From: Acidobacteriota bacterium
GTDB taxonomy: Bacteria; Acidobacteriota; Blastocatellia; RBC074
Direction of reading: 5' to 3'
DNA length: 57,083 nt
NCBI GenBank assembly: GCA_022072205.1
Contig: JAJVID010000065.1
Location: 1-57,083, forward strand
Positions within the stretch are counted from its first letter, which is position 1. Every line of letters begins with the position of its first letter. Positions 830-41,746 of this stretch are shown here, piece by piece. A program made the position numbers and the translations under genes. The notes under the pieces are model-generated. The model made no database searches, had not been told where the DNA came from, and saw only the letters and a list, made by a program, of their open reading frames with translations.

Positions 830-3745
830 TCAATCAACGTAAACGAAATCGTTCGACGACATCAGCGCGCGGCACAAGCTCTGCCACGCTTTCTGGCCAA
901 CATTTTCTCCCGCGAACTTCTGCTTGAATCCTTCGATGTATTTCAGCGATTGATCAACCTCTTCCTTCGCAGGCTGACGATTGAGGATGCGCGCGTAGGC
1001 GGTTTCGACTCGCGACGCGTCGCTCAATCCTTTTTTGTCGAGCAGCGATTTCGCCACGTCCTGCGCGCGTTCGTTCAGGAATTCGCTGTTGAGCCAGAAG
1101 AGCGCCTGCGTGGCGACGTTGGTCAATTGCCGTTTGCCCGAAGACGTGGTCGCGTCGCCGAAATCGAAGAGGTTCAGCAGCGTCGGCAGATTCGCGCGGC
1201 GCAGCGGCAAATAGACCGTGCGGCGTTTCAGCTTTTCGGGATTCAGGCTCAGCCTGCCCTGATTGTTCTCGCCGTCAGTGCCGCGCCCGGTTTGCAGCGT
1301 CCCGCCCATCGTGAAATCAATCGTTCCGTCAACCGCCAGCAAGCCGTCGCGCATCTCTTCGACCGAAAGACGGCGGCGATTGAAGCGCGTCAGCAAACGA
1401 TTGTCAGCGTCGGCGTCCGGCGCGATGTTCGGATTTTCAGATGACATCTGGTAGGCGCTCGAAAACATGATCAACCGATGCATCGCTTTGATTGACCAAC
1501 CGCTTTTGACGAACTGCGTGGCCAGGTAATCGAGCAGTTCGGGATGCGTGGGCGGTTCGCCCATCTTGCCGAAATTGTCAGGCGTGCGCGCCAGGCCCTC
1601 GCCGAAATGCCATAGCCAGATGCGGTTCGCCATCACACGCGCGGTCAGTGGATGGCCGGGCTGCGTCAACCATTCGGCAAACTGTAATCGCCCGCTGCCG
1701 ACAAACGCCGGCTTCGTGTCGTAACGAGCGAGGATCGCGGGAAAGCCTTTCGGCGCGTCTTCGCCGTTGTTGTTGTAATCGCCCCGGATGAAGACCTTCT
1801 GCGCGATCGGCTCGCCGTCTTCAATCGCGCAGGCCATTTCGGGTTCCGCAGGCGCGGACTTTTTCAACTCCGCTTGCTGTTTGTGAAGCTCGGTGAGCCG
1901 CGACCATTGTTCGGGCGAAAAACGCTTCTGGTCTTTATCGCCAACGGCGAAAGGCCCGCCCGCGAAATAGACATCGTTGAAGAAGCGGTCATCGCCAGCT
2001 TCAAATTTTGGTTTGTCTGGAACGGGCTTGTTCTCGGCCAGAGCTTTTTTGTATTCGGGCCGCCACTTGCTGATCTTCTCTTCCCATTCGGCAAAACGTT
2101 TCTGAAAACGCTCCTGATAGCTTTGCGCGGTGGCGGCAAGTTTATCCGGCGCGGCGGCGTTCCATTCGTTCAGATAGCCGCGAACCTCGGCGCCCGGCTT
2201 CAGGAAATCAACCCAGCGTTTCAACAACTCTTCGTTCAAATCGGATTGTCGCGCTGTGCCGGCCAGCAGCGCTCCGCTTTGATAAATTTTGCGCGCGGCG
2301 AGGAAGTAATCCGCCAGACGCGGCGAATGCTGTTTGACCGCGTGATCCTTCACTTCATCCACGATCTCTTCAATCGCGATTTTGACGCGCGACTCTTTCG
2401 CCTGATGTTCTTTCCGCGCGGCTTTGTAGCGCTCGAATTCCGCCTTCGTCACGAGCGGTTTTTCGAGCACGGCGGAAACATGCGAATCGGGATTGGTGAA
2501 GCTGCGCGTTGAAGCGAACATCCCGATCATCGAGTAATAATCTTTGGTCAGGATCGGATCGAATTTGTGATTGTGACAGCGCGCGCACGAGACTGTCAGA
2601 CCGAGAAACGCCTTCGTCGTGACGTCAACCTGCTCATCGTAGACGTCGTAAAGCATCTTCTTCTTGTCCTGCTGCGCGATGGCTTTCGGGCCGAGCGCGA
2701 GAAAGCCGGTGGCGATGACGCCGCGACGATTGACCTCGCCGCCGTCTTTTGCCGGAAGCAGATCGCCCGCGATTTGTTCGCGGATGAATTGGTCGTAGGG
2801 CAAATCGTTGTTGAACGATTCGATCACGTAGTCGCGGTATTTCCAGGCGTGCGGGTAGCGGTGGTCTTCGTCGTTGCCGGTCGAATCGGCGTAACGCGCA
2901 ACGTCCAGCCAATGGCGGCCCCAGCGTTCACCATAACGTGGACTGCTGAGCAATCGTTCGACGACTTTTTTGAACGCGTCGGGCGAATTGTCGGCCAGGA
3001 AATCGCGCATTTCGTTTTCGGTCGGAGGCAGTCCCGTCAAATCGAACGTCGCGCGGCGCAGCAGCGTCAGCTTATCAGCCGCCGGAGCGGGTTTGAGGTT
3101 TTTCTCTTCCAGCTTCGCCAGCAGGAATCGGTCAATCGGCGATTTGATCCACGCTTCGTTTTTCACTCGCGGCGGCGCGGCGTCCTTGACCGGCTGATAC
3201 GACCAGAATGCTTTTTCCTCTTCGGTGAACGACCTGACTGACGAATTCTTCGGCCAGTTTTCTGAAGCAGCAGGTTTATCAGTTCCTGGCCACGGCGCGC
3301 CCATCCTCACCCACTCGGTCAACGCGGCGATTTCGTGATCTTTCAATTTGCCTGTCGGCGGCATCTTCATCTCGCCGTCGTAAGCGATGACTTTGAGCAA
3401 GCGGCTCTCTTCCGGTTTTTCTTTGTTGACGAGCAGGCCGCTGTCGCCGCCGCGGTGGAAACCTTCGGCGGTTGTCAGATCGAGTCCGGCCACTTTCGCT
3501 TTCGAGTTGTGGCATCGCTGGCAACTCGTGGCCAGGATCGGGCGAATCTTCTTCTCGAAAAATTCCTGCTGCGCGGTGTTCTCGACGGGATTTGGCTCGA
3601 TTCTTCCCGGAACCGCTGACGCCTGTGAAACGGCCAGGCTGAAAAGCAGCGCCAGCGCCAGCGTGATTTTGATCAGCCTGCGCGAGGCAATGAGCGATGG
3701 GAGCGATGGGAGTGATGAAAGTAACGGGAACGATGGTTTCATCAT
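830..3745 (-). CDS. Secreted PSCyt1 / DUF1549 (PSCyt2) / DUF1553 (PSD1) multidomain protein
   Basis: 971-aa ORF with a signal peptide (...ALALLFSLAVSQASA). It has a CxxCH motif (SCQRCHNSKAKVAGLDL), a second CARCHNHKFDP motif typical of DUF1549, and a DUF1553-type C-terminal region ending ...SNDFVYVD. Confidence 0.9.
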   Translation of the reverse strand: MMKPSFPLLSSLPSLPSLIASRRLIKITLALALLFSLAVSQASAVPGRIEPNPVENTAQQEFFEKKIRPILATSCQRCHNSKAKVAGLDLTTAEGFHRGGDSGLLVNKEKPEESRLLKVIAYDGEMKMPPTGKLKDHEIAALTEWVRMGAPWPGTDKPAASENWPKNSSVRSFTEEEKAFWSYQPVKDAAPPRVKNEAWIKSPIDRFLLAKLEEKNLKPAPAADKLTLLRRATFDLTGLPPTENEMRDFLADNSPDAFKKVVERLLSSPRYGERWGRHWLDVARYADSTGNDEDHRYPHAWKYRDYVIESFNNDLPYDQFIREQIAGDLLPAKDGGEVNRRGVIATGFLALGPKAIAQQDKKKMLYDVYDEQVDVTTKAFLGLTVSCARCHNHKFDPILTKDYYSMIGMFASTRSFTNPDSHVSAVLEKPLVTKAEFERYKAARKEHQAKESRVKIAIEEIVDEVKDHAVKQHSPRLADYFLAARKIYQSGALLAGTARQSDLNEELLKRWVDFLKPGAEVRGYLNEWNAAAPDKLAATAQSYQERFQKRFAEWEEKISKWRPEYKKALAENKPVPDKPKFEAGDDRFFNDVYFAGGPFAVGDKDQKRFSPEQWSRLTELHKQQAELKKSAPAEPEMACAIEDGEPIAQKVFIRGDYNNNGEDAPKGFPAILARYDTKPAFVGSGRLQFAEWLTQPGHPLTARVMANRIWLWHFGEGLARTPDNFGKMGEPPTHPELLDYLATQFVKSGWSIKAMHRLIMFSSAYQMSSENPNIAPDADADNRLLTRFNRRRLSVEEMRDGLLAVDGTIDFTMGGTLQTGRGTDGENNQGRLSLNPEKLKRRTVYLPLRRANLPTLLNLFDFGDATTSSGKRQLTNVATQALFWLNSEFLNERAQDVAKSLLDKKGLSDASRVETAYARILNRQPAKEEVDQSLKYIEGFKQKFAGENVGQKAWQSLCRALMSSNDFVYVD

Positions 3746-4761: not shown

Positions 4762-4866
4762 AAGAGAGAACACGTAAAAGACGGAAATAACGGAACAAAC
4801 GGAAAAGAGCAAGCCCATATAATTTCCGTTTGTTCCGTTATTTCCGTCTTTTACGTGTTCTCTCTT
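4762..4866. repeat. Perfect 44-bp inverted repeat (ACGGAA-rich hairpin family, copy 1)
   Basis: Arm 4762-4805 (AAGAGAGAACACGTAAAAGACGGAAATAACGGAACAAACGGAAA) is the exact reverse complement of 4823-4866, with a 17-nt loop. The right arm overlaps the TAA stop of the CNNM gene. Confidence 0.95.
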
Positions 4867-6178
4867 AATCCTCCGCATCGTCCGGCCCGACGCGGCTGAC
4901 CAGAACTTTGTCCACGCGGCGGCGATCCATGTCCACGACTTCGATTTTCAGGTCGTCCCAGACGAAATAATCCGACGCTGACGGCAATCGTCCGAGGTAA
5001 GTGATGATGAATCCAGCCAGCGTGTGATAACCGCCGTCCTCTTCTCTCGGCAATGTGTCGAGCGAGAATAATTCCTTGAACTCAGCGATGGATATTCTGC
5101 CATCCAACAACCACGATCCGTCGTCGCGTTGAACGGCGTAGCTTTCAACCTCGCCGCTCGGCGCAGGCAAATCGCCGACAATCGCTTCCAGCACGTCGTT
5201 CATCGTCACCAGTCCTTCAATCGCGCCGTGTTCGTCAACGACCATGGCGATGTGCGTCGCCGAGCCTTTGAACAGTTCCAGCAACTGCAACGCGGTTCTG
5301 GTCTCCGGCACGTAAAGCGGCTGGCGCAGCGCGGCTCGCAGGTCGAACGGCTCGCCCGCGAGAACCCTCGACAACAGGTCTTTCGCCTTAACTATGCCCA
5401 GAATGTTGTCGAGCGCTCCCTGGCAAACCGGCGTCCGCGAATAAGGGCTGTTGATGATCCGCTGGCGAGTTTCTTCAATCGGCGCTTCGATGTCCAACCA
5501 GACGATGTCCAGGCGCGGCGTCATCAACGCGGGAACCTTCTGATCTGGCAACCGGAAAATATTCTCCACCAGGTCTTGTTCGGTTTCTTCAAAGACGCCT
5601 GCTTCAGTCCCCTGATCAATCAGGAGCTTGACCTCTTCTTCGGTGATCGGCGGCTCGTCCGACGGTTTGGCTTTCAACAACCGCAGCAGAAAATTTGAAG
5701 AGGCGCTGAGCGCGCGCACGGCAGGCCACGCCAGACGCGACAGAAACTGCATCGGCCTGGCGATCCGCGCCGCGATTTTTTCGGGATTATTCAGCCCCAG
5801 TCGCTTCGGAACCAGTTCGCCCACAACCAGCGAAAAATAGGTGATCACCAGCACCACCAAACCCAGACTGATGGCTCCGCTGTATCGCGCGATCGCTGGA
5901 ATGCGCTCGAAATACCCTACCAGATGCTCCGCGATGGTCGCGCCGCCGAACGCCCCGGCCAGAATGCCGATCAGCGTGATGCCGATCTGAACAGTCGAAA
6001 GAAAACGATCCGGCGCGTTAGCCAGATCGAGCGCGGCGCGCGCGCCTGCGTCGCGTTCAGCGCGTTGTTGCAACCGCGCGCGGCGCGACGAAACGACCGC
6101 TATCTCAGACATTGCAAAAACACCGTTAGCTATCAACAACAGGATGATGAATAGAATCTCGACCGCTACCTGAGCCAT
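4865..6178 (-). CDS. CNNM/DUF21 + CBS pair + CorC_HlyC family membrane protein (hemolysin-family / Mg-Co efflux-like)
   Basis: ORF 4865..6193. The ATG at 6178 is preceded by GGGAGA. The N-terminus is a DUF21 TM region (VEILFIILLLIANGVFAMSEIAVVSSRRARL), followed by a CBS region and a C-terminal transporter-associated domain. Confidence 0.9.
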   Translation of the reverse strand: MAQVAVEILFIILLLIANGVFAMSEIAVVSSRRARLQQRAERDAGARAALDLANAPDRFLSTVQIGITLIGILAGAFGGATIAEHLVGYFERIPAIARYSGAISLGLVVLVITYFSLVVGELVPKRLGLNNPEKIAARIARPMQFLSRLAWPAVRALSASSNFLLRLLKAKPSDEPPITEEEVKLLIDQGTEAGVFEETEQDLVENIFRLPDQKVPALMTPRLDIVWLDIEAPIEETRQRIINSPYSRTPVCQGALDNILGIVKAKDLLSRVLAGEPFDLRAALRQPLYVPETRTALQLLELFKGSATHIAMVVDEHGAIEGLVTMNDVLEAIVGDLPAPSGEVESYAVQRDDGSWLLDGRISIAEFKELFSLDTLPREEDGGYHTLAGFIITYLGRLPSASDYFVWDDLKIEVVDMDRRRVDKVLVSRVGPDDAED

Positions 6179-6331
6179 AGTCCAATCTCCCAATCGTTTT
6201 CCTCTTCGGCGGTGAATCAGGCGAGAGAGATGACAGGATAAACGAAGAAATCCGATCAGAAAGAATTTCTACCCGTAAAATCCGCTGGCTGTTCTTAAAT
6301 CAAACCATACAAGATTGGGACAAACACTTTT

Positions 6332-6436: not shown

Positions 6437-7006
6437 TTACTGGTTGACACGCTCGATCGAGCGGGCGATCAACACAGGCTCGTTTTTGAATTCGGCTTCG
6501 AGTTTCGGTTGAAGGTCCCAGCCGATTTCGCGCTCGATGTTGCTGACGTTCATCCGCTGCACGACGCCGGTCACGCGCACTTTGTTGCGCTTCCACTGGT
6601 CGTCAACATTCGCCAGGTTGCCGGCTTTCGGAATCAACACCAGCAGGTCGTCATCATTGTCTCCGGAGATATCCGAATCCTCGTCCAACTCGAACGCGCG
6701 CGGGCCGTAAACTTCATCAACGTCGGCGACCACCGTGACGGTCTTGCCGATCAGAGCGTTCGGATTCCTTGTGATGTCGGTCACGCGGTGAGTCGCGCCT
6801 ACTGGTAAACCGGTCGTTCCCACCGCGCCGGGCGACGTTGCCGGCGACGGATATGTTTCCGGCGTCGTCATCGGTGTTGTCATCGGTGTCGGCGTCGGCG
6901 TCACAATCGGTTCCGTTGCGGTTTCGCGATCTGTGGTTTCGCAACCGGCCACGAACGAAACCAGCGTGATGAACGCTGTGAAAAAAATAGCTGTGCGCTT
7001 CTTCAT
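6437..7006 (-). CDS. Lipoprotein with Thr/Pro-rich linker, unknown function
   Basis: The internal ATG at 7006 is preceded by the strong SD AGGAGGAGGAGGA. MKKRTAIFFTAFITLVSFVAGC has a lipobox, followed by a TPTPTPMTTPMTTPETYPSP linker. The longer ORF to 7219 overlaps the rhodanese frame. Confidence 0.75.
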   Translation of the reverse strand: MKKRTAIFFTAFITLVSFVAGCETTDRETATEPIVTPTPTPMTTPMTTPETYPSPATSPGAVGTTGLPVGATHRVTDITRNPNALIGKTVTVVADVDEVYGPRAFELDEDSDISGDNDDDLLVLIPKAGNLANVDDQWKRNKVRVTGVVQRMNVSNIEREIGWDLQPKLEAEFKNEPVLIARSIERVNQ

Positions 7007-7068: not shown

Positions 7069-7434
7069 TCATTTCTGTTCCAACGGGAAACCCGCCTGGC
7101 GCCATGCGTCGAATCCGCCCAGGAGCGGATAAACGTTGTGATAACCGCGCTCGATCAATTTCCGCGCCACACTGGCGCTCGATGCTTCCATCTGTCAGGT
7201 TCAGTAAGGGACTATCCACCGATCCTTTCCGCCATCTTTCGGGATTTCGCTCAACCGCAGATCAACTTCGTCGGCGGGTATGCGTATCGCGCCCGGAAGC
7301 TTTTCGCTCGCGTGGCTCCACGCCTGAGGGTTGCGGGAATCAATGAAAAACACAGGCTCGCCGCGATTCATCCGCCGCATCACCTCATCAGGCGTCACTT
7401 TGCGTATCATCGTTTGTTGAGTCGCTTCGGCCAT
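7069..7434 (-). CDS. Single-domain rhodanese (sulfurtransferase) with two in-frame TGA codons at the active-site loop: selenocysteine-recoding candidate or pseudogene
   Basis: ORF 7201..7434 (MAEATQQTMIRKVTPDEV...IPKDGGKDRWIVPY) continues in the same frame as TGA(7201-7203)-ACC-TGA(7195-7197)-QMEASSASVARKLIERGYHNVYPLLGGFDAWRQAGFPLEQK. The terminal TGA is at 7069-7071. Confidence 0.6.
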
Positions 7435-7462
7435 TTCTCAAAACTCCTTTCCTGAAAATACC

Positions 7463-7526
7463 GCGAGCGGTAGCGGCGCAGCCTGACTAATCGGCTCAGG
7501 CTAGAGATACGCTCGCTACCGCTCGC
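7463..7526. repeat. Compound intergenic hairpin
   Basis: Outer arms are GCGAGCGGTAGCG (7463-7475) and CGCTACCGCTCGC (7514-7526). Inner arms are AGCCTGA (7480-7486) and TCAGGCT (7496-7502). It lies between the M24 peptidase stop and the rhodanese start. Confidence 0.8.
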
Positions 7527-7546
7527 AGAATTGATACGAATCTTCA

Positions 7547-8803
7547 TCAAACCATCGCCGCAGGCCGCGCGGCGGCTTCGTCGCTGAGCGCCTCATCGCC
7601 CACTGACGACCTGACGACCAGATGTTCGATGTTCGACTGGAACGGCGTCAGAATTTCGACGCCGCTCTCGGTCACCATCGCCATGTCGCAATGACGCAAT
7701 CCGCCATAGCCCTCGACGTAAATCGCCGGTTCGACGTTGAAGACCATTCCAACTTCGAGCCGGTCTTCCGAAGCCGGGCGCAATCGCGGAAGCGCGTTGT
7801 GATCTATCGCGGCGAATCCCACGCCGTGCCCTGTCGCGTGTTTGAACTGATCGCCGAAGCCGCGCGAGACAAGCGCTTCGCGCGCAGCCGCGTCAACATC
7901 CGCCGCCATCGCGCCCGGCCTGATAACCTCCATCGCCGCGCGCAATGCGGCGTGAACCGCGCCGTACATCTCAAGCTTCCGCGGGCCGGCTTCGTCCAGC
8001 ACGAAGGTGCGCGTAATGTCCGTCCAGTAACCGTCGGCGTACGAGTTGCAATGAACCATCACGAAATCGCCCGGTTCCAGTTCGCGATCGCGCGAGCGCG
8101 CGTAAGCCTTATACGCCTCAGCCGAATTGGCGCCCGACATGACCGAGACGAATCCGTCGGCGCGCTGAACACCGGATCGGGGATCAACCATCATCAACGG
8201 CGCGCGAAACAAGGCCGCCGCTTCATACTCCTTCATCCCCTCGCGGAGCCGCCGCGTTCCTTCCCCAAAAGCATTCTCCGCCATACGGCAGGCCACGCGA
8301 ATGCGCCCGACTTCTCCGGGCGTTGGTCTCGCGCGCAAATTCGCCAGCAGATCGTCGGCGGGCCGCAGCCTCGTTTCTGGCAGACTCCGGCGAAGCAGAT
8401 CAACGATGCTCGCGCCGTGCAGATACATTGAGACGTAAGAGCCGGGAACCGACACCGGGCCGCGCTCATAACCGATGCGCCCTTTTTCGATGGAAAGGTC
8501 AACCGCCGCTTCGCGCAAAGGCAGCCAGAGCGCGTCCGCTGCCTGCTTGATCTCTTCAAGCGGCGCGGGTTGATACCTCCGCACTTCGTCAGCCAGCGCG
8601 CGTCCGGCCATCTCCACTTCGTCATCCGGCGCGATCAACACGACGCGCCCCTCGCGCGTGGCGATGGCCAGCGATGTTCCGATCACAGGCCAGTAGCCCG
8701 AAAGCAACAACACGTTGTTGGGCAGCGCGCAGATCAGCGCGTCCAGGCCGGCATCGTCCAGCGCGCGATGGATAGCTTCGACTCTGATGTCATCTCTCGC
8801 CAT
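7547..8803 (-). CDS. M24-family metallopeptidase (Xaa-Pro aminopeptidase/creatinase-like)
   Basis: 418-aa ORF with a creatinase-like N-domain and a pita-bread C-domain carrying the metal-ligand context ...HATGHGVGFAAIDHNALP...VFNVEPAIYVEGYGGLRHCDM. Confidence 0.9.
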   Translation of the reverse strand: MARDDIRVEAIHRALDDAGLDALICALPNNVLLLSGYWPVIGTSLAIATREGRVVLIAPDDEVEMAGRALADEVRRYQPAPLEEIKQAADALWLPLREAAVDLSIEKGRIGYERGPVSVPGSYVSMYLHGASIVDLLRRSLPETRLRPADDLLANLRARPTPGEVGRIRVACRMAENAFGEGTRRLREGMKEYEAAALFRAPLMMVDPRSGVQRADGFVSVMSGANSAEAYKAYARSRDRELEPGDFVMVHCNSYADGYWTDITRTFVLDEAGPRKLEMYGAVHAALRAAMEVIRPGAMAADVDAAAREALVSRGFGDQFKHATGHGVGFAAIDHNALPRLRPASEDRLEVGMVFNVEPAIYVEGYGGLRHCDMAMVTESGVEILTPFQSNIEHLVVRSSVGDEALSDEAAARPAAMV

Positions 8804-19749: not shown

Positions 19750-20049
19750 ACATACTTTGCAGCCTGTTCCGTATTCTTCTTCGAAGCAGTTACAAACCAA
19801 ACGCAATTTTTTCTACCGCCCGGTTTTCAGTCTGTCGGCGCCTTTCCGCACCCTTGCCCGAAAATGCCCACGAATTCGGTCGGCGCGCCGATTGCACCAA
19901 CTCAAACCAGACCAAATAAGACAAAGTAAGAAGGCCGGTCAGGGCGTATCGCGGCGGGACATAGAATGTCCTGCCGCAAGACGGTGCGGATCAGCCGAAA
20001 AAATTTTTATGGCGAGTTCCGCACGCGGCTGACCAAAGGTTCAAACACA

Positions 20050-22965
<2,916 letters not shown>

Positions 22966-23004
22966 TGTCCTGTGATAAGGCATCGAAAAAATGTCCGATA
23001 ACTG

Positions 23005-23112
23005 ATGGCGTTTGAAAATTAACCACAACAACAGCGTAGGGGCGGGTTTTCCCCGCCCTGATCCGCTATCAAGATGGCAGGGCGGGGAAAACCCGCCCCT
23101 ACGCTGTTGTTG
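23005..23112. repeat. MITE-like palindromic element (GTAGGGGCGGGTTTTCCCCGCCC family), copy 2
   Basis: Tail ATGGCGTTTGAAAATTAAC plus arms CAACAACAGCGTAGGGGCGGGTTTTCCCCGCCC (23026-23058) and the reverse complement at 23080-23112. It lies between treY and treS. Confidence 0.9.
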
Positions 23113-23147
23113 CAGTATCTACTCTCGGACACTTTTGGTGAAACGTT

Positions 23148-24815
23148 ATGAGTGTTGAAAGCGCAATCCATTCTGATCCGCCCCGGCCTGATCCGCTCTG
23201 GTACAAAGACGCGGTCTTTTACGAAGTTTACGTGCGCGGCTTTTACGACTCGAACGCCGACGGGATCGGCGACTTTCGCGGGCTGACCGAGAAGCTCGAT
23301 TATTTGGAATGGCTGGGCGTTGATTGCCTGTGGCTGCTGCCGATGTACCCGTCGCCGTTGCGCGACGGCGGTTACGACATCTCGGATTACTATTCGATCC
23401 TGCCGGAATACGGGACGCTCGACGATTTCAAAAATTTTCTCGCGGCGGCGCACGCGCGCGGCCTGCGAGTGCTCACCGATCTGGTGATCAATCACACTTC
23501 CGACGAACACCCCTGGTTCAAGGAGTCGCGCGCCTCGCTGAATTCGCCGAAGCGCGATTGGTACGTGTGGAGCGATACCGATTTGAAATACGCGGACGCG
23601 AGGATCATCTTTCTCGACACCGAGCGTTCCAACTGGGCGTGGGACGAACATTCGGGCCAGTTCTACTGGCATCGCTTCTTCAGCCATCAGCCCGATCTCA
23701 ACTACGACAACCCTGAAGTCCGGCAGGCGATGCTCGACGTCGTTCGCTTCTGGTTCGATCTCGGCGTTGACGGTTTAAGGCTCGACGCGATCCCTTATCT
23801 TTACGAACGAGAGGAAACGAATTGCGAGAACCTGCCCGAAACGCACGCTTTCATCAAGCTCCTGCGCCGCTTCGTTGACGAACACTACTCCGGCCGGTTG
23901 TTGCTGGCCGAAGCTAACCAGTGGCCCGAAGACGTCGTGGCTTATTTCGGCGAAGGCGATGAATGCCACATGTGCTATCACTTCCCGATTATGCCGCGAT
24001 TGTTCATGGCGCTGCGCCAGGAAGACCGGCGCCCGATAATCGAAATTCTGAATCGCACTCCGGCCATCCCCGAAAACGCGCAATGGGGGATGTTCCTGCG
24101 TAATCACGACGAGTTGACGCTGGAGATGGTGACCGATGAAGAGCGCGATTACCTTTACGCCGAATACGCCAATGACCGGCGGATGCGGCTCAACCTCGGC
24201 ATCCGCCGCCGGCTGGCGCCGTTGATGGACAATGGGCGCAGGCGAATCGAGTTGCTCAACGCGCTGCTCTTCAGCCTGCCGGGCAGCCCGTTTCTGTATT
24301 ACGGAGACGAGATCGGGATGGGCGACAACATTTATCTGGGCGACCGCGACGGCGTGCGGACGCCTATGCAATGGTCGCTCGACCGCAACGCCGGATTTTC
24401 AAGAGCCGATTTCGCGCAATTGTATTTCCCGATAAATATGGACCCGGTCTACGGCCATCAGTCGGTCAACGTCGAAGCGCAGCAGCGCCATTCGACCTCG
24501 CTGTTGCACTGGATGCGCCAGATAATCAAATTGAGGAAGAAGCATCCGGTCTTCGGGCGCGGCTCGCTCGAATTCCTCAGACCGGAGAACAGAAAGGTTC
24601 TGGCCTTCACGCGAAGTTACGCGGGCGAAACCGTGCTGTGCGTCTACAACCTCGCGCGATCATCGCAGCCGGTGCAACTCGACCTGAGCCAGTATCAGGG
24701 AAGAACGCCCGTGGATTTGCAATACCAGTCGCCATTCCCGCGCATCGAGGAACGTCCCTACCAGCTCGCGCTCAACGAATACGGATTTTACTGGCTCCTG
24801 CTGGCGAAGCCCTGA
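23148..24815 (+). CDS. treS: Trehalose synthase / maltose alpha-D-glucosyltransferase (GH13)
   Basis: 555-aa ORF: [107 protein letters not shown]. Confidence 0.9.
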
Positions 24816-24833
24816 AGCGCGAAGCATGCGTAT

Positions 24834-25745
24834 TCACGCTTCCCGCGATGCGTTCGCCGCCGCCTGCGAATGGGCTTTCGCCGAAATTCCCGAATGCGCG
24901 CCGCTCTCGCGCCATCGCCGACGCAATCGCCGGCGCAATTCATCCTTCTCGCGCTTGATCGGCAGCCGGTAACGCGTTCCCAGGCTGATGTCCTGCGGCC
25001 TGGGCCGGGCTGTGCCGTCAGCGATCATTCGCACCGCGTCGGTCATCAACCGGACGCAATGCTCCATCATCCGCGCGCGATAATCGGCGATGAAGCGCTC
25101 GAAATCGAGGCCGTAAGAATAATCGTAGACGAGCGGCAAGGTTTCCTGAACGAGTATCTCGCCGGTATCAACCTTCGGCTCGACGAAATGCACCGTGACT
25201 CCGACCTCGCGCTCTCCGTTATACAACTCCCAGAAAACCGGAGGCCCGCCGCGATAGTAAGGCGCCCGCCCCTGATGAATGTTCACCGAACCGAGGCGCG
25301 GGATTTTGAACACGGACTCTTTCAGGATGTTCGTTCCCCAAACGATACCCAGGTCAGCCTCCGCCGCGCGCATCAGGGCGATGGATTCTTCGGTGTGATA
25401 GTTCGACAGGAAATGCGCAGGCGTCCCCAGGAGTCCGGCGGTTTTGCCGAGCGCCCGCTGATTCTCGCGGATCTGACTGGTTTCATCAGAAGAGGAATCC
25501 TTACGATTCGCAAGCAGGCGAAGCCCCTTCATCACTGTGGCGGCATATCCTTCGTAACGTATCGAACGGCGCAGTTTATCGCGCAGGCCGTAAATCCGGC
25601 GGTTGACCTCTGTCTCGATGAACATGCCGGCGACCTCCACGCCGTCAATCTTTATCAAATTCCCCAGCAGGGACTCAGCGTCGCCGTGCGTGAGCACAAT
25701 TACACGTAGTTTTTTGTTATCCGAACTCATAGCGTTCACTTCCAT
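24834..25745 (-). CDS. Formyltransferase-family protein (Fmt/PurN-like N-domain)
   Basis: ORF 24834..25904. Probable start at ATG 25745 or 25730 (MSSDNKKLRVIVLTHGD...). SVNIHQGRAPYYRGGPPVFWELYNGEREVGVTVHFVEPKVDTGEIL matches the formyltransferase core. Confidence 0.75.
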   Translation of the reverse strand: MEVNAMSSDNKKLRVIVLTHGDAESLLGNLIKIDGVEVAGMFIETEVNRRIYGLRDKLRRSIRYEGYAATVMKGLRLLANRKDSSSDETSQIRENQRALGKTAGLLGTPAHFLSNYHTEESIALMRAAEADLGIVWGTNILKESVFKIPRLGSVNIHQGRAPYYRGGPPVFWELYNGEREVGVTVHFVEPKVDTGEILVQETLPLVYDYSYGLDFERFIADYRARMMEHCVRLMTDAVRMIADGTARPRPQDISLGTRYRLPIKREKDELRRRLRRRWRESGAHSGISAKAHSQAAANASREA

Positions 25746-26093
25746 CGTTCTGTCGTTTTGCGATGGTTGGATTAAGCAGCGAATCAGCCGGACTGAGAGG
25801 CGGGGGGCCTCTATGAACTGATCGTTTTCGTTGTAAGGAGGGATAAGAGATGGAAAAGCAGAGATGCAATAAGATTGAATAAAGAAAAATGCGGGACGGA
25901 TCAATTATCTCAGCCGGCGCCTTTTTTTCCTTTTGTATTCTTGCATCTCTTATTTCCAACGCTCCATTTTTCAAGGCGCAAGGCCAGCGGTTGGCGTTGC
26001 TGGCCGCGCCTGTAATTGTGGGATTCGAGGATTATCCGGGCGAAATATCCGCTTCTTTAAACGGGCGGTTAGTGAGCAAACTCCGAGCCAGAG

Positions 26094-28154
26094 TTATCTG
26101 CCAGAGTCATCTATATGCTGCCATTGCGCAGTCTTCACATAACATCGCAATACCTCAGCGACGCTCCACGCCTGGGCCACGCAACCGCGCGGCGCAAACG
26201 GCGGTTCGGCGTCGAAGACTTCGCTGATCGAACCCACGCTGTCCTCGCTCAAATGCGGCTTGAATCCTTCAAGGAATCGCCGGGCTTCCTGAAAATGGTC
26301 GGGCCGCGTTCTGAGCCAGGCGTCAATGAACGGCCCGATCAGCCACGCCCAGACCGTCCCCTGGTGATAAGCCGCGTCGCGCGCGCGCAGGTCGCCATCG
26401 TACATCGGTTTGTAATCGGGGTGATCGGGGGCGAGCGAGCGAAGGCCGACCGGCGTCAACAGACGGTCGGTGACCACGTCGAGGACAGGTCTCCACCTGC
26501 TTTCGATCAAGACCGGATATTTCAGCGAGAAGGAAAGTATCTGATTCGGGCGGCAGGACGCGTCGTCTCCGTGCTCGCCATCAACGACGTCGTAAAGATA
26601 ACCGCCTCTGGCATACCAGAACCGGTCATTGAATGAACGGCCCGTCATTTCAGACTGCTCGATGATTGTTTGCGCCGCAGCCACACTGTCTTCCTCGCTC
26701 ACCCATTCGGCCATCAGCCGCAGCGCGTTGTACCAGAGCGCGTTGATCTCGACGGCCTTGCCCCGGCGCGGTGTGACCACCCAATCGCCGCACTTCGCGT
26801 CCATCCACGTGAGTTGATAGCCTTCGGCGCCCTGACTCAACAGCCCATCGCGCGGGTCAACGCAGATACCGAACCGCGTGCCTTCGATGTGATGCCTGAT
26901 GATATTGCGCAGCGTGGGCAGCACCTGCCGCAGCGTATTGCGGTCGCCGGTCGCGCGCAGGTAACGATCCAACGCGTGAAAGAACCAGAGCGTCGCATCG
27001 GCGGTATGATAACGCCCTTCCGTTTCGCCTTCGGGGAACATATTCGGGATCAACCCGTCGCGCACGTAATGCGCGAAGGTGCGCAGGATCCATCCCGCTT
27101 CGGTGAAGCGCCCGGTAATCAGGGCCAGGCCTTCGAGTCCGATCATCGTGTCGCGTCCCCAATCAGTAAACCAGTAATAACCGGCGATCATCGTTCGCAC
27201 ATCGTCGCCTACGGCCTGCGCCCGCGCGGTTTCTTCAATGCGTCCGACCGGCACGATGATGAATTGATCGGCGGCCAGCGTCAGTTCAGCGCCGAATTCG
27301 TCCTGCGCGGGTGGCGCGACGATTGAAAGCAAACGCTGGCGGCGCACGCGTTCGGCTGGCGGCGCTTCGTGCGAAGAGATGGCGAAGATCGTCGGCCACG
27401 ACTCAGTCGAAGCGATCAGCGTCACGTCTTCGCCGGGATTCAGCGTGACCTGAAAATAGCCCGGACTCCACAGCACTCCCTGCGAATCGTAACCGCGCCT
27501 GGCTTCGGCTCGATAGAACTGATCTTTGATGACGCCCCAGTCGAGCGTCAGCGCGACTTCACGGCCACGCAACCGCAATCTCAGCGGCGGATATTCGGGT
27601 CTTCCTCTGATCTCGTATCTGTCTTCGACAATCGTCAGCGTGTACGGCTCCGGCAACGGATCACTGACGCGGCCCTCGTGCGGGCGGAAATGGAAGGCTG
27701 GACGTAGTTCCAATCGCACAGGCTCGACGCCCGACAACAATTGATAAGTCACGTGCACGGTGTTTTGCAGGTGCGGCATCAGCAGGCGTTTTTCAAGCGT
27801 CAGGCCGTTGATCTCGTAACGCCAAACGGGCAAGCCCATTTCAAGGCGGAATTCTGCCAGACTCTCCGCGCCGAGTAATTCCAGGCTGCCCGCGCTGCAT
27901 TCATCGCATGAAAGCTGAATGATCGAGCCGCCCGTCAGCCACAGGCGTTCGCTCAGATGATTGAACATCATCGTGCGGCCCAGCGGCGCGGGCAACGCGG
28001 CGACCAGCAGGCCGTGAAAGCGCCGTGTCGGAACGCCGGCGATTGTGCCTGACGCGTAACCGCCGAGGCCGTTGGTGACCAGCCATTCCTGTCTGAGAAA
28101 AGTTTCCGCGTCCTGCTTTCCTGGCCACTCGATGCGGCGAACCGGGTCAATCAT
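26094..28154 (-). CDS. Glycogen debranching enzyme, amylo-alpha-1,6-glucosidase (GDE_C) type
   Basis: ORF 26094..28172. The ATG at 28154 follows AAGGAAGAG. N-terminus EWLVTNGLGGYASGTIAGVPTRRFHGLLVAAL, and a (alpha/alpha)6 region ...GYYWFTDWGRDTMIGLEGL...AYHQGTVWAWLIGPF. Confidence 0.9.
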   Translation of the reverse strand: MIDPVRRIEWPGKQDAETFLRQEWLVTNGLGGYASGTIAGVPTRRFHGLLVAALPAPLGRTMMFNHLSERLWLTGGSIIQLSCDECSAGSLELLGAESLAEFRLEMGLPVWRYEINGLTLEKRLLMPHLQNTVHVTYQLLSGVEPVRLELRPAFHFRPHEGRVSDPLPEPYTLTIVEDRYEIRGRPEYPPLRLRLRGREVALTLDWGVIKDQFYRAEARRGYDSQGVLWSPGYFQVTLNPGEDVTLIASTESWPTIFAISSHEAPPAERVRRQRLLSIVAPPAQDEFGAELTLAADQFIIVPVGRIEETARAQAVGDDVRTMIAGYYWFTDWGRDTMIGLEGLALITGRFTEAGWILRTFAHYVRDGLIPNMFPEGETEGRYHTADATLWFFHALDRYLRATGDRNTLRQVLPTLRNIIRHHIEGTRFGICVDPRDGLLSQGAEGYQLTWMDAKCGDWVVTPRRGKAVEINALWYNALRLMAEWVSEEDSVAAAQTIIEQSEMTGRSFNDRFWYARGGYLYDVVDGEHGDDASCRPNQILSFSLKYPVLIESRWRPVLDVVTDRLLTPVGLRSLAPDHPDYKPMYDGDLRARDAAYHQGTVWAWLIGPFIDAWLRTRPDHFQEARRFLEGFKPHLSEDSVGSISEVFDAEPPFAPRGCVAQAWSVAEVLRCYVKTAQWQHIDDSGR

Positions 28155-30102
28155 TTCTTCTCTTCCTTTCACCCCTCCATTCGGCTTCTCTGCGCTGCTT
28201 CGCCGCCAGGATTTTCTCTTCCGGCAATGGCTTCGGCGTCATCGCGACAGCCGCGTGGCCGGGTATTCGCCAGCCTGTCTCAGTGTCGAGCGCCGCTGTG
28301 CCCGATCCCCCATAACGCGGGTCTTCGCTCGACCACAGGATCGCCCATTCCGACAGCTCAGGCGGCGCCAGCAGCGGTTCGGGCGCCGGAGTGAGATTCA
28401 AATCAACGCCGAAATTGATCAGCAGCAAACGGTCATCGCCGCCTTCGCCGAAGAACCGCAGGACGAACGCTTCATCGCCGAGAACCGCGCCGTCAACTCC
28501 ACCCGCGCGCTGCGCGCTGAAGACCGCGTCTTCACGCCGGAGCCTGAGCAGGTCACGATGCATCTCGTAAATCGCCGAATGACGTTCGCGCTCGGACAAG
28601 TCGAGTTTCGAGCGCTCGAAAGTTCGCGGATCGCAGGGATCGTCCAGTTGAGATTGAATTTCAGGCGTGGCCAGGCTGGGAAACTGCGCGAGGAACTCGG
28701 CGCGCCCTTTGCGGACAAGCTCCGCCAGTTCACTGTTCTGATCGGCGAAATAGAGAAAGGGATTCGACGCGGCGAATTCCTGCCCCTGAAACAGCATCGG
28801 CGTGCCAGGCGCAAGCAGCGTCAGAGCGGTCATCGCGCGGTAAAGTCCGGGACTGGTCAATTGATGACATCGCTCGCCGCGCCCTGAATTCGCAATCTGA
28901 TCGTGATTCTGAATGAACATGACGAAGGCCGATGGCGGAACTTTCAGGCTCGGCGTCCCGCGCCGCATCTCCTGCCACCGGTACCACTGGCCCTGATAGA
29001 GGTAGCCGTATTTGATCGCCGAGATGAACTCCTGCGGCTTGCCGAGATAATCGGTGTAATAAGCTTCGTTGCGCCCGGTCATCGCCACCATTGCGCTGTG
29101 GTGGAAATCGTCGTTCCACAACGCGTCCAGACCGTACCCGCCCTGCTCCTGCGGTCGAATCAGAATCGTCTCCTGCGGTTCGTTCTCGGCAATGATGACG
29201 ATGGCGCGGCCCCGCGCCGCTTCACGAACTCGCCGCGTAATCGCGGCCAGAATGTGGTCGCCGGACAAATCGTAAATGTTCTGCGTCGCGTCCAGCCGCA
29301 ATCCGTCCAGATGAAATTCATCAATCCAGTAACCGGCGTTCGCGATGAAATAGTCGCGCACCGGCCCGGCGTTTTTTCCGTCGTAATTGATCGCCTCGCC
29401 CCAATCGGTCTTGTAGCGGCTGGTGAAATAATCTTCCGCGAACTCTCTCAGATAATTCCCGTCCGGCCCCAGATGGTTGTAAACAACATCGAGGATCACT
29501 CCCATCCTGAGCGCGTGGGCGCGATCAACGAAACGCCTGAAATCGTCGGGCGAACCGTACAACCGCGTCGGCGCAAACAGATTCACGCCGTCGTAACCCC
29601 AGCCGAAATTGCCCGGAAAATCGGCCACCGGCATGACTTCAAGCACAGTGATTCCCAGGCGGGCCAGTTCATCGAGTTCGCGCGCCGCCGCCGCCCACGA
29701 GCCTTCGCGCGTGAACGTTCCGATGTGCATTTCGTAAATGACCTGCCCGCGCAGGTTGACGCCGCGCCAATCGTGATCAGTCCATTTGAATCTGTTCGGA
29801 TCAACGATCTCGGACGGGCCGTGCGGGCCTTCGGGTTGAAAGCGCGAAGCCGGGTCGGGATAAAGCCGCTCGCCCCTGTCCAGGCGAAGACGATAGAGAG
29901 CGCCGGCGCCTGCGGATTCGATCACGCCGGAAAAATAACCTTTGTCTTCCGGCGCCAGATCGAATCTTTGCCCGCTTCGGCCACTCTCGATCACGACCTC
30001 GACCGTGCGGCGGCGCGGCGCCCAGACGCGGAAATGCGTTCCGCCATGCGGCAAAACCCTGGCCCCGATATTCATTCGGCGAGGGTGTTCAGTGATTTTC
30101 AT
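28147..30102 (-). CDS. treZ: Malto-oligosyltrehalose trehalohydrolase (GH13)
   Basis: ORF 28147..30219. Likely start at ATG 30102 (MKITEHPRRMNIGARVLPHGGTHFRVWAP). Also YEMHIGTFT, VILDVVYNHLGPDGNY, GLRLDATQ, IIAENE and NHDQIANS motifs. Confidence 0.9.
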   Translation of the reverse strand: MKITEHPRRMNIGARVLPHGGTHFRVWAPRRRTVEVVIESGRSGQRFDLAPEDKGYFSGVIESAGAGALYRLRLDRGERLYPDPASRFQPEGPHGPSEIVDPNRFKWTDHDWRGVNLRGQVIYEMHIGTFTREGSWAAAARELDELARLGITVLEVMPVADFPGNFGWGYDGVNLFAPTRLYGSPDDFRRFVDRAHALRMGVILDVVYNHLGPDGNYLREFAEDYFTSRYKTDWGEAINYDGKNAGPVRDYFIANAGYWIDEFHLDGLRLDATQNIYDLSGDHILAAITRRVREAARGRAIVIIAENEPQETILIRPQEQGGYGLDALWNDDFHHSAMVAMTGRNEAYYTDYLGKPQEFISAIKYGYLYQGQWYRWQEMRRGTPSLKVPPSAFVMFIQNHDQIANSGRGERCHQLTSPGLYRAMTALTLLAPGTPMLFQGQEFAASNPFLYFADQNSELAELVRKGRAEFLAQFPSLATPEIQSQLDDPCDPRTFERSKLDLSERERHSAIYEMHRDLLRLRREDAVFSAQRAGGVDGAVLGDEAFVLRFFGEGGDDRLLLINFGVDLNLTPAPEPLLAPPELSEWAILWSSEDPRYGGSGTAALDTETGWRIPGHAAVAMTPKPLPEEKILAAKQRREAEWRGERKRRND

Positions 30103-30127
30103 TTCGAATTGTCCGGCGAGGACGATT

Positions 30128-30403
30128 CTATGATCTCGCGCCTTCGCGCGCCACCGCAGGGCGCGGCTTTTCCGCCATGATCGAAGACCGCACCTCAGCC
30201 TCGGCTCTGAGCCAGTCATTCATATCTTCGCCGTCGTTTCTGCCGCGCTGCTCATAAATTTCATAAGCGCGTTGCGCGATCAGGTCTCGTAATTCCATCG
30301 GCCCGCTTTCCGCAGCGGAAGCTTTTTGCCCTCTCTTCGTTGAAGACCGCCGCGCCTCCGGCGTTTCGCTCAACGGTTCGTCATGCTTCTTCTCTCTCAT
30401 CAT
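30128..30403 (-). CDS. DUF2934-domain small protein
   Basis: GGAGAG SD 4 nt before the ATG at 30403. The core IAQRAYEIYEQRGRNDGEDMNDWLRAEAEV is typical of DUF2934. Confidence 0.7.
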   Translation of the reverse strand: MMREKKHDEPLSETPEARRSSTKRGQKASAAESGPMELRDLIAQRAYEIYEQRGRNDGEDMNDWLRAEAEVRSSIMAEKPRPAVAREGARS

Positions 30404-30754
30404 TAACTCTCCGTCAAAATATAATTCAGACAACCTGTAGTTTGTTCTGGCCGCGAAGATCAGCGAGGCAATCCGCATTCCAGCTTAAAAATCAGCAACG
30501 CCTTCCGGCATCACGCACAGGCGAACAATCCGCAAGATGAAGTCAGATGCGCCTCACTTCTGCATCCCGTTTGCAACATATGATTGCCTGCGCCTGCGCG
30601 TTCCTTTTGTCTGGTCACAATGACCAGAAGAATTACAGTTGTGTACAGACGCCAAACAAAGAGCGTCGAACGCGATCGGCGCCGGCGAGAATATGTGAAC
30701 CGATGGTGTGGTCTTGAAAGAACAAGGAAGGCGGAGCGATTCAAGGGGGCGGTT

Positions 30755-31939
30755 ATGGACAACCAGATTTATGATTTGAATGGAACTACACTCGAAGCTG
30801 TTGGGAGGGGCCAGTTCCCTGTCATCTCCGGCGTTTACCGCCCCAATCTGAACTACGAAGTGGAGCGCGTCAGCAACGAGGGCGAGAAGCGACTCTCTCT
30901 GGTACGGCTGCTGAGAGAGAACGAGGGAACGGGTGTCATTTTCGCGGCGACATTCAAGGAAGTGAAGGCCATCACCGATTACCTGAAGCATATCGGCTTC
31001 GACGTCGCTCCTTATCACGAACACCTTAGCGAAGGCGAAAGGCGCCGGAACCTTGATCGTTTCATAGCCGGCGAATTGAAGGCGATGGTCTCAACCGGCG
31101 CTTTCGTCGCGGAAATTAACGACGCGGGCGTTGATAAACCCGGCGTCAGGTTCGTGATCCATTACAACCCGCCCGGATCGCTCGAAACCTATTATCAGGA
31201 ATCCGGACTCGCAGGCCGCGACGGGCGAACGGCGCGCTGCACGCTGCTGTTTCAGATCGCCGACCGCCGCGCGCAATTCTTCTTCGCGGGCGGGCGTCAT
31301 CCGAAACCGGAAGAGGTGACCGCCGTTTACGAAACGCTGGAGATGTTGAAAGCGGATCTGAAGCCCGCGCCATTGGAACGAATACAGGCGAGCGCAAGCC
31401 GTGTGGCCAAAACCAGAGTGCGCGTGATTCTATCCCTGCTCAAAAACATGGGGTTCATCAAAGAATATCGCGGCGCGCGCTACACGCTCTTGAAACGCGA
31501 TTTGAGCGCGCAGGAGATGGAACGGCTGGCGGGCGAATACACCCGCAAGGGTGAAAGCGACAGCGAAAAATTCGAGCGGATAATGCGTTACGGGCAAAGC
31601 CCTGAGTGCCGGTGGAAGTTGCTGCTCGAATATCTCGGCTCGCGCGCGGGAACCGATGCGGAATCGGGCGCCGAAATAAAAGCGTGCGGCCATTGCGACA
31701 ACTGCTCCCGCCCGGCTGCTGAGCTGTCGCCCGCGCCCGAAAGCGTGGCCAGGCCGGATTTCATTGACCTGATCTTCGCTTACCACCAGCAGGAAGAGGC
31801 GCGGATCAGGCCGGGCGATATGGTCAAATTGCCCGCGCACGGCGAGGTCAGGGTCAAAGCGGTCGAAGGAGACAAGATCGTCGTCAGCCTCCCCGGTGGC
31901 GAAACCAGAAAATTCAAACAGGAATGGGTCATCAGATGA
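30755..31939 (+). CDS. RecQ-family helicase fragment: helicase lobe 2 + Zn/RQC region only, ATPase lobe 1 missing
   Basis: Starts at ATG 30755 near the RecQ (F)DRPNL motif (GVYRPNLNYEV). Motif IV-VI region VIFAATFKEV...YHEHLSEGERRRNLDRFIAG...VDKPGVRFVIHYNPPGSLETYYQESGLAGRDG, and a Zn motif CRWKLLLEYLG...CGHCDNC. No Walker A or DEAH box lies upstream. Confidence 0.65.
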   Translation: MDNQIYDLNGTTLEAVGRGQFPVISGVYRPNLNYEVERVSNEGEKRLSLVRLLRENEGTGVIFAATFKEVKAITDYLKHIGFDVAPYHEHLSEGERRRNLDRFIAGELKAMVSTGAFVAEINDAGVDKPGVRFVIHYNPPGSLETYYQESGLAGRDGRTARCTLLFQIADRRAQFFFAGGRHPKPEEVTAVYETLEMLKADLKPAPLERIQASASRVAKTRVRVILSLLKNMGFIKEYRGARYTLLKRDLSAQEMERLAGEYTRKGESDSEKFERIMRYGQSPECRWKLLLEYLGSRAGTDAESGAEIKACGHCDNCSRPAAELSPAPESVARPDFIDLIFAYHQQEEARIRPGDMVKLPAHGEVRVKAVEGDKIVVSLPGGETRKFKQEWVIR

Positions 31940-33201: not shown

Positions 33202-33804
33202 ATGTTTACTTTGATGACGCGAAACTGGTGGGCGCTGGCATTGCGCGGACTGATCGCAGTGCTGTTCGGAATCGCCGCGTTTATCTGGCCGGGAATCACG
33301 CTCTGGGTGCTGGTGGCGCTGTTCGGCGCTTATGCTCTGATAGATGGGATCTTCGCGCTGATTGCGGCTTTCACACGCGACACGGGCGCGCGAGGCGTGG
33401 CCGGCTCCGACCGGCGCTGGTGGGCGCTGTTGTTTGAAGGCATCGTCGGCATCGTCGTCGGCGTTTTGACATTCATCTGGCCGGGGCTGACCGCCCTGGG
33501 GTTGCTCTTTCTGATCTCGTTTTGGGCGATTGTGACCGGCTTCTTTGAATTAGTGACGGCCATCAGGTTGCGGCGCGAAATTACGGGTGAATGGATGATG
33601 GCGCTGATCGGGATTCTTTCAATCGCGTTCGGAGTGTCGCTGGTGATCTATCCTCTGGCGGGCGCGCTTTCGGTCGTGTGGTTGATCGGAGCTTATGTGT
33701 TCATCATAGGCATTCTGATGATCGCGCTTGCGTTCAGATTACGCTCGATGCGCGATTCTGGCCGGCGCGCGCATTCCATACCGCGAACAGCGCCCAGTCA
33801 TTAA
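33202..33804 (+). CDS. hdeD: HdeD-family (DUF308 repeat) membrane protein
   Basis: 200-aa ORF with a [58 protein letters not shown] and repeated DUF308 segments. Confidence 0.85.
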
Positions 33805-33810
33805 ATTTAT

Positions 33811-33839
33811 GTCCGGCAAGCCTCCGAACCTTGCCGGAC
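33811..33839. promoter_or_regulatory. Perfect 10-bp inverted repeat with 9-nt spacer between hdeD and dnaK (operator or terminator candidate)
   Basis: GTCCGGCAAG-cctccgaac-CTTGCCGGAC, 7 nt after the hdeD stop and 25 nt before the dnaK ATG. No T-tract follows. Confidence 0.4.
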
Positions 33840-33863
33840 CACAGCCGGAGAAAAGGTGGATGT

Positions 33864-35801: not shown

Positions 35802-36029
35802 ATCGGTTTGCAATTACGCGGATGGGACAGTTTGGCAAGCGGGTGGGACACTTTGGCTGTGTCTCATTCCGATTCGCGGCCGGCTCGCGGGTTGGCCGCT
35901 TCGACGATTGACGCCGCCACTACGGTGCAAAGGTGGTCGGGGGGAACCGAGCCATTGTTTACCGGGAATGGCCTCTCGGTCGGTCGAAGCGGCTGAACCG
36001 GCGGGCCGGTTGCGTTTCGCTTGCCGGGC

Positions 36030-36057
36030 GGGAAGCGGATTTGTGAATCCGCTTCCC
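36030..36057 (-). terminator. 12-bp GC-rich hairpin downstream of the DUF2171 gene
   Basis: GGGAAGCGGATT-tgtg-AATCCGCTTCCC, 18 nt after the stop at 36075. No clear U-tract. Confidence 0.45.
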
Positions 36058-36074
36058 AACGCGCCGCATTGCGC

Positions 36075-36344: not shown

Positions 36345-36422
36345 TGTGTTTCTCCTCTTGTTGTTGTGTTTTGAACTTTCATCCGCCCGACGAGGGCGGA
36401 TGTTCGGTGATCTTCGCATCGC

Positions 36423-37518: not shown

Positions 37519-37519
37519 T

Positions 37520-38602: not shown

Positions 38603-38629
38603 TGGCCCGCGATTTCATTATGGAGGCGG

Positions 38630-38965: not shown

Positions 38966-38978
38966 ACCAGATTTTGAA

Positions 38979-41627
<2,649 letters not shown>

Positions 41628-41628
41628 A

Positions 41629-41733: not shown

Positions 41734-41746
41734 GGGAGAATCAATC

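Follow-up and report, generated by a model that had tools for sequence, protein, structure and literature searches.

A gene on the minus strand of the stretch of acidobacterial DNA analyzed here (57,083 nucleotides, referred to throughout as the window) encodes a rhodanese-like protein in which TGA occupies two positions of the active-site loop, with a single codon between them. The question raised by this locus is whether both UGAs are read as selenocysteine (Sec, U), or whether one or both of them end translation or are read as another residue. A preliminary description of the window had put forward a U-x-U selenoprotein, and the alignment, hairpin covariation and population data presented here support that reading. 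On these sequence comparisons we consider it probable that both UGAs specify Sec in the window gene, giving the motif U-T-U.

A rhodanese-like reading frame with two in-frame UGAs

The reading frame runs from an ATG at 7434-7432 to a TGA at 7071-7069 and comprises 121 codons plus the stop (Table 1). Its conceptual translation is ...WIVPY-stop-T-stop-QMEASSASVARKLIERGYHNVYPLLGGFDAWRQAGFPLEQK-stop, and with the two internal TGAs taken as Sec the predicted product is MAEATQQ...VPY-U-T-U-QMEASSA...FPLEQK. Besides these two TGAs (codons 78 and 80), the 121-codon frame contains no stop and no frameshift. Re-translation reproduced exactly the coordinates that the preliminary description had assigned to the frame and to both TGAs, and bore out its statements that the gene has no other lesion and that the 41 codons past the TGAs are typical of the family, the corresponding 41 codons of the orthologues being conserved to the same stop.

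When Cys was substituted at both TGAs, the window protein matched the Pfam Rhodanese domain (PF00581) over residues 14-113, with an E value of 2e-13 and 51 bits against a cut-off of 22.2. TGA is the usual stop in the window, where it terminates 22 of the 27 Pfam-supported genes, and reassignment of UGA was therefore rejected. The window protein is very probably a single-domain, cytoplasmic rhodanese-like selenoprotein.

Table 1. Features of the rhodanese locus and its immediate neighbors (window positions).
Feature	Position	Strand	Basis or remark
Predicted rhodanese-like selenoprotein CDS, 121 residues	7069..7434	-	Translation, PF00581, ...PLEQK stop shared with orthologues
Shine-Dalgarno-like AGGAG	7444..7448	-	9 nt 5' of rhodanese ATG; read from sequence
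First in-frame UGA, codon 78	7201..7203	-	Cys in 81 other genes; proposed lineage-specific second Sec codon
Second in-frame UGA, codon 80	7195..7197	-	Conserved, predicted Sec codon of the Y-C-T-U family
Candidate SECIS hairpin GCGCC-AGUGU-GGCGC	7164..7178	-	Covariation, RNAalifold, Sec-versus-Cys contrast
189-aa gene, lipoprotein-like signal (MKKRTAIFFTAFITLVSFVAGC...)	6437..7006	-	Syntenic partner 3' of rhodanese
CNNM/CBS/CorC-type transporter gene	4865..6193	-	Pfam CNNM, CBS, CorC_HlyC; next syntenic neighbor
M24 peptidase gene	7547-8803	-	Upstream neighbor, 112-nt gap to rhodanese start

Codon 80 belongs to a family of C-T-U genes

A protein search returned 101 homologues, approximately 90 of which are gene calls of 68-95 residues that end in ...YCT. 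The nearest genes in representative genomes came from MAGs labeled Blastocatellia, Pyrinomonadaceae, Chloracidobacterium or Acidobacteriota. At the DNA level, three syntenic orthologues (L007-L009) each read through one TGA, with Y-C-T-TGA-P-H-E-A-S-S-A... continuing into 41 conserved codons and ...FPLEQK before the stop. The window gene, the genes from representative genomes and L007-L009 together form a family set of 82 genes, mostly acidobacterial, with the active-site loop Y-C-T-U-P-H-E-A-S-S-A.

At the position of codon 80 (site 2), TGA was found in 71 of the 82 genes and TGT or TGC in the other 11, and all of the Sec forms run on into the 41 conserved codons and a common stop. At the position of codon 78 (site 1), the counts were 65 TGC, 16 TGT and a single TGA, that of the window gene. 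Each in-frame UGA is thus aligned with Cys in homologues, and the two stops do fall on the two loop cysteines as had been claimed. From this alignment and the hairpin comparison below, we regard it as almost certain that the UGA at codon 80 is a long-standing, family-wide Sec codon, ancestral to the window gene. The preliminary description had also counted two independent changes to TGA; this holds for the first TGA, which alone is specific to the lineage, and fails for the second, which is ancestral to the family.

Three full-length homologues (P0004, P0005 and P0006) have Trp, Arg and Glu, respectively, at the Sec/Cys position (YCTWPHEG, YCTRPHEA and YRTEHYEA). These residues resemble one-base changes of TGA (to TGG or CGA), and the genes could be inactivated copies, sequencing errors or Sec-independent working forms.

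A compact hairpin follows the UGAs

The candidate SECIS hairpin, confirmed at the place where the preliminary description had located it, consists of a 5' arm GCGCC (7178-7174), a loop AGUGU (7173-7169) and a 3' arm GGCGC (7168-7164). Its stem begins 16 nt past the second UGA and 22 nt past the first, and its loop 21 and 27 nt past them. The hairpin conforms exactly to the family consensus, a 15-nt element with a 5-bp G+C stem and the loop N-G-U-G-Y. A perfect 5-bp stem was present in 68 of 70 Sec forms versus 2 of 11 Cys forms, and a G at loop position 2 in all 70 Sec forms versus 4 of the 11 Cys forms. Orthologue covariation, a check proposed in the preliminary description, was evident in compensatory stem variants: of the Sec forms, six have GUGCC/GGCAC, one GCGCU/AGCGC and one GCGCG/CGCGU. 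Cys forms lack the stem yet retain the same S-S-A-x-V-A peptide, and whereas the residue encoded at the loop is only Ser or Arg in Sec forms (NGU/CGG codons), it is Q, R, G, E, S, N, K or H in Cys forms. The family therefore has the SECIS pattern of selenoproteins, a loop G and a covarying stem that are mostly lost from Cys forms. An RNAalifold consensus of 69 distinct Sec (C-T-U) forms contained the 5-bp hairpin as its sole structure, as did the consensus of a set of U-T-U genes introduced below.

A long-range lower stem, UGACCGC/GCGGUUA, appeared in single-sequence folds of the closest orthologues and would be broken by the Q-M substitutions of the window gene; it was dropped because it is missing from the RNAalifold consensus of the 69 Sec forms, in which the 5-bp hairpin alone is retained. 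Across 18 contigs of the window species the hairpin is kept save for one G-to-A variant on one short contig (L099), where an AGC-to-AAC change (S86N, codon 86, corresponding to window 7178) alters the first stem G and weakens the terminal pair; the change may be an error or a rare variant.

Comparison across the family shows UGA-80 to be recoded as Sec via this hairpin, and in the mechanism we propose UGA-78 would be read as Sec through the same hairpin, which lies 22 nt away and hence 6 nt farther. In E. coli fdhF the distance from UGA to SECIS is tightly constrained, so that the service of UGAs at 16 and 22 nt by a single hairpin is not self-evident, and we know of no experimental demonstration of it in bacteria. 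Because the hairpin is 6 nt farther from the first UGA than the family-wide spacing, one could suppose that this codon is instead read through as a near-cognate residue such as Trp or Cys, giving an X-T-U protein; the homologues with Trp (P0004, YCTW) or Arg (P0005, YCTR) at the Sec position likewise indicate that the loop admits residues other than Cys. Near-cognate read-through is normally inefficient, however, and the site-1 UGA aligns only with Cys, which is the classical signature of Sec. Since UGA at site 1 also recurs in many lineages, with the SECIS always there, we consider read-through by a residue other than Sec quite improbable.

Codon 78 in the window species

In all of the nearest relatives of the window gene (70% identity) site 1 is Cys, and the window gene additionally has Q-M where these relatives have P-H, and a Pro ahead of the Tyr. 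The main rival to a second Sec is accordingly a recent nonsense mutation: TGC would have become TGA at codon 78 of a C-T-U gene, translation would stop there, and the remainder of a young pseudogene would not yet have decayed. Cys at site 1 in 81 of 81 other genes of the representative-genome set speaks for this, as do the unusual loop substitutions from P-H to Q-M.

The population data bear directly on the matter. The same two TGAs were found in 18 of 18 contigs of the window species, derived from 18 different runs or assemblies, among them GCA_009612875.1 and GCA_009612915.1, and are thus not an artefact; a sequencing or assembly error at one TGA is refuted by this identity and has a negligible probability. 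The contigs resolve into six full-length haplotypes, none of which has lost either TGA, the frame or the stop, so that the allele is fixed and older than the split into haplotypes. The preliminary description had pointed to population data as a place where further disabling lesions might come to light, and the rhodanese gene shows none in the 18 assemblies, with no indel and no new stop. Against a pseudogene, the changes since the split comprise 7 synonymous and 5 non-synonymous substitutions overall (P 0.018), compared with a neutral expectation of ~74% non-synonymous; 3' of the TGAs the counts, which are small, are 4 and 3 (P 0.08).

Five substitutions within 19 bp (window 7105-7123, codons 104-110; compare L001 5201-5833) occur in one haplotype, three of them synonymous and the others L105Q and D109N. 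Part of this set is shared with a second haplotype group, and a small tract of recombination seems a likelier origin than separate mutations.

Over the longer term, Nei-Gojobori omega between the window gene and five orthologues was 0.23-0.29 upstream and 0.13-0.28 downstream of the TGAs, and dS to the nearest relatives was ~0.6-1.2. Downstream constraint equals upstream constraint in the window lineage, such that conserved coding sequence under purifying selection continues 3' of the UGAs. A 77-residue product would end short of the active-site loop and lose the fold's C-terminal third, and constraint on either half therefore implies read-through and full-length translation. The downstream part has been under selection for most of the branch, although omega averages over a long branch and is blind to a very recent inactivation, a point that favors the recent pseudogene.

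U-T-U rhodaneses in other lineages

Metagenome contigs were scanned with the pattern TAY-TGA-ACN-TGA-N6-GAR-N3-TCN-AGY-GCN-NG, whose information content, by our own estimate, predicts ~1 match by chance. The scan yielded 70 loci, all of which are rhodanese ORFs that have Y-U-T-U and keep a complete C-terminus typical of the family; 63 of the 70 are distinct, and the window species accounts for one only (L120). The comparison of orthologues suggested in the preliminary description thus gives TGA at site 1 in 63 distinct metagenomic genes, alongside the family set in which 81 of 82 genes have TGY there. Clustering of the U-T-U genes gave no fewer than 7 groups at 50% identity and ~18 at 60%. The 3' arm of the hairpin, which lies outside the scan pattern, pairs perfectly in 60 of the 63 genes, with compensatory variants, and the spacing of the hairpin is the same as in C-T-U genes. 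In the largest U-T-U clade, median omega was 0.19 for the 60 codons that precede the motif and 0.14 for the 37 that follow both TGAs. These sequences show U-T-U to be a recurrent and selected state with unchanged SECIS geometry in other lineages.

The window gene is 70% identical to its nearest C-T-U relative and only 46% identical to the nearest foreign U-T-U gene, so that its U at site 1 would be an independent gain. A residue other than Pro follows the second U in 17 of 62 U-T-U genes versus 5 of 70 C-T-U genes (Fisher P 0.002, phylogeny ignored), and Pro precedes the Tyr in 19 of 70 U-T-U loci versus 2 of 81. The substitutions that accompany the first TGA in the window gene thereby match states enriched in other U-T-U genes, which counts against a recent pseudogene. 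Purifying selection on U-T-U in ~18 other clusters, with the same hairpin geometry, likewise stands against a recent nonsense mutation. Taking both sides together, we judge a recent pseudogene unlikely and infer that the first UGA would be read as Sec in the window gene.

In the main U-T-U clade, L102 and ~33 other loci carry an N-terminal extension with a hydrophobic stretch (e.g. ...SSILPLVLVALGVLLILGAGGWYYY...), which suggests that these proteins may be membrane-anchored or exported, unlike the putatively cytoplasmic form of the window.

Search for Sec machinery and genomic neighborhood

No selA, selB, selD or tRNA-Sec gene was found within the 57-kb window or the flanks of related loci. 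A Pfam scan of ~45 window ORFs yielded no selenium-metabolism gene, tRNA and Rfam scans of the window found neither a tRNA gene nor an Rfam match reaching the gathering score, and ARAGORN detected no tRNA-Sec in 42 related loci. Had the lineage lost its Sec-decoding machinery, both TGAs would be plain stops and the gene dead, and the lack of sel genes and tRNA-Sec in the window is in line with this. The window, however, represents ~1% of a genome, so that absence there says little. Further, the SECIS has remained identical to the consensus despite the dS of ~0.6-1.2 noted above, and the downstream ORF is intact and constrained; a loss of the machinery is therefore very improbable. When the window was scanned blind for further ORFs interrupted by TGA, 116 candidates emerged, mostly noise in G+C-rich DNA and same-frame adjacent genes; the scan was uninformative as to other selenoproteins.

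The ORF that follows the rhodanese gene is 189-192 aa long in L007, L008 and the window-species contigs, with an ORF of 126 aa at that place in L009; the product of the window copy has no Pfam match. The order rhodanese, lipoprotein-like ORF, CNNM/CorC gene is the same in L007-L009, and these neighbors give no clear functional lead. The gap between the M24 peptidase gene and the rhodanese gene contains a 19-nt inverted repeat (7457-7475 and 7514-7532, 89% complementary, with 38 nt between the arms). It is followed on the minus strand by UAUUUUC and is absent from the list of a simple terminator scan; it may act as the peptidase gene's terminator, or else be a regulatory or a REP-like element. 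Among Pyrinomonadaceae-type C-T-U loci (L015-L089), clustering of flanking ORFs, judged by eye, revealed recurrent neighbors within 4.5 kb of the rhodanese gene that resemble a pirin-like protein (at 20 loci), a large molybdopterin-oxidoreductase-like protein (19), a GAF-domain protein of ~170 aa (18) and, immediately 3' of the rhodanese gene, a methyltransferase (16).

The remainder of the window is ordinary chromosome, with glycosyltransferases, glycogen enzymes, dnaK-grpE-dnaJ-clpB-lon and transporters. A glycogen/alpha-glucan cluster at 19966-30219 comprises a GDE debranching enzyme and three genes of the alpha-amylase family, and the alpha-amylase/GDE block is also located near the rhodanese gene in L007-L009. 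The heat-shock block occupies 33591-44457. A RecQ-like ORF at 30584-31939 (plus strand) matches only Helicase_C (from residue 103) and RecQ_Zn_bind, with no DEAD/ResIII match; the ORF may thus be divergent or split at its N-terminal end, or have a wrong start. A 971-aa protein encoded at 830-3745 (minus strand) carries the "planctomycete" domains PSCyt1, PSCyt2 and PSD1; a planctomycete origin was rejected because the nearest genomes are labeled Blastocatellia/Acidobacteriota, and the names of these domains are a misleading taxonomic cue.

Predicted structure and chemistry of the active-site loop

An AF2 model of the Cys homologue P0002, which is 59% identical to the window protein, had a pLDDT of 89.4 and Foldseek TM scores of 0.70-0.77 to the PDB rhodaneses 3nhv and 3tp9, in agreement with the PF00581 match in placing the family in the rhodanese fold. 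In this model the central beta-strand is immediately followed by the first Cys, and the second Cys sits ahead of the helix, two residues into the loop. In the HMMER alignment, which opens a 2-residue gap, the canonical catalytic Cys is matched by the first Cys; an ungapped alignment anchored on the following helix instead matches it with the second Cys/Sec.

Under the Sec reading of both UGAs, a Cys codon at position 78 that is otherwise invariant would have become UGA in the window species, and the active-site loop of the window protein would contain U-T-U in place of C-T-U. The two chalcogen residues at the start of the loop would then form a redox or transfer pair, in which the bond would be a selenenylsulfide for C-T-U and a diselenide for U-T-U. 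A selenenylsulfide/diselenide pair acting in redox or chalcogen transfer appears to us the most economical reading of the motif.

Implications

With somewhat less confidence than we place in the two Sec residues of the window gene itself, we favor a broader view in which U-T-U rhodaneses constitute a widespread, under-catalogued class of bacterial two-Sec proteins, one 15-nt SECIS would recode UGAs both 16 and 22 nt upstream, and the window gene would be a recent, independent conversion of the partner Cys to Sec within the C-T-U clade. At least 63 distinct genes have the U-T-U form, making it much more widespread than is suggested by catalogues, which list C-x-U with one Sec. In evolutionary terms, Sec would have spread from one active-site position to the partner Cys, repeatedly and independently. 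For recoding, a single minimal hairpin seems to act on two UGAs separated by 6 nt, which bears on how strict the UGA-to-SECIS distance is outside E. coli. Annotation is affected as well, in that gene callers split the gene and public protein collections hold a 77-residue fragment, together with ~90 relatives as fragments ending in ...YCT, where the predicted real product is a 121-residue selenoprotein. If this view is correct, the C-T-U sister genes offer natural controls for SECIS distance tolerance and for a switch from selenenylsulfide to diselenide. The finding opens no new category.

Comparison with known systems

A C-x-U rhodanese-related selenoprotein has been catalogued (NCBIfam NF041203, rhodanese_LYCAU; PMC13188914, PMC9312934). 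NF041203, scored with U replaced by C, was the best NCBIfam match of the window protein (90.5 bits), of its orthologue L009 (98.9) and of seven U-T-U representatives (57-103), all of these whole-protein scores being below the curated cut-off of 115 bits; the window clade is a sister to NF041203 and not an equivalog. The two groups share a single rhodanese domain of ~115-125 residues, a Tyr-Cys-x-Sec at the start of the loop (in the orthologues of the window gene) and the existence of Cys homologues. They differ in that the orthologues of the window gene have Y-C-T-U rather than Y-C-A-U, and in that the window gene has Y-U-T-U, with the Sec position kept and the Cys replaced by a putative U, whereas the catalogues give one Sec.

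A U-x-U rhodanese-related sulfurtransferase was described in silico from deltaproteobacterial symbionts of Olavius algarvensis (Zhang and Gladyshev, 2007; PMC1976440, Fig. 3A). As far as that figure goes, the likeness is one of motif, in that a rhodanese-related selenoprotein has gained a second Sec beside the first, and the evidence is purely computational in both cases. The window gene likewise has two UGAs one codon apart in a rhodanese loop with a candidate SECIS downstream, an arrangement found also in the 63 unique metagenomic genes. The lineage depicted there is deltaproteobacterial, in contrast to the Blastocatellia/Acidobacteriota-labeled clade here, within which the U-T-U of the window would have arisen independently from C-T-U.

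Other predicted bacterial two-Sec proteins include a Prx-like UxxU protein, the FmdB-family UxxU proteins and TsoB with UxxxxU (PMC2398784, PMC13188914), and eukaryotic SelL, as cited in PMC2398784, has UxxU with a diselenide. As in the window gene, a redox pair of cysteines is replaced through two UGAs lying within a few codons of each other, and such closeness means that either one recoding signal is reused or two signals are present. These proteins have other folds, and their Sec residues are separated by 2-4 residues as opposed to one here; SelL, with its eukaryotic 3'-UTR SECIS, is moreover free of the distance problem that the window gene poses.

The family shares its fold with E. coli GlpE (1gmx) and with the structural-genomics rhodaneses 3nhv, 3tp9 and 6mxv. 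Unlike canonical rhodaneses, its loop is two residues longer and acidic (C-T-C-P-H-E-A-S versus C-x-x-G-x-R/S) and contains a second Cys/Sec, so that thiosulfate-sulfurtransferase activity is not implied by the fold, and the longer acidic loop would argue against plain activity of that kind. Taken together, these comparisons identify the window gene as a new, independently arisen acidobacterial instance of a family and a U-x-U motif that had both already been described computationally.
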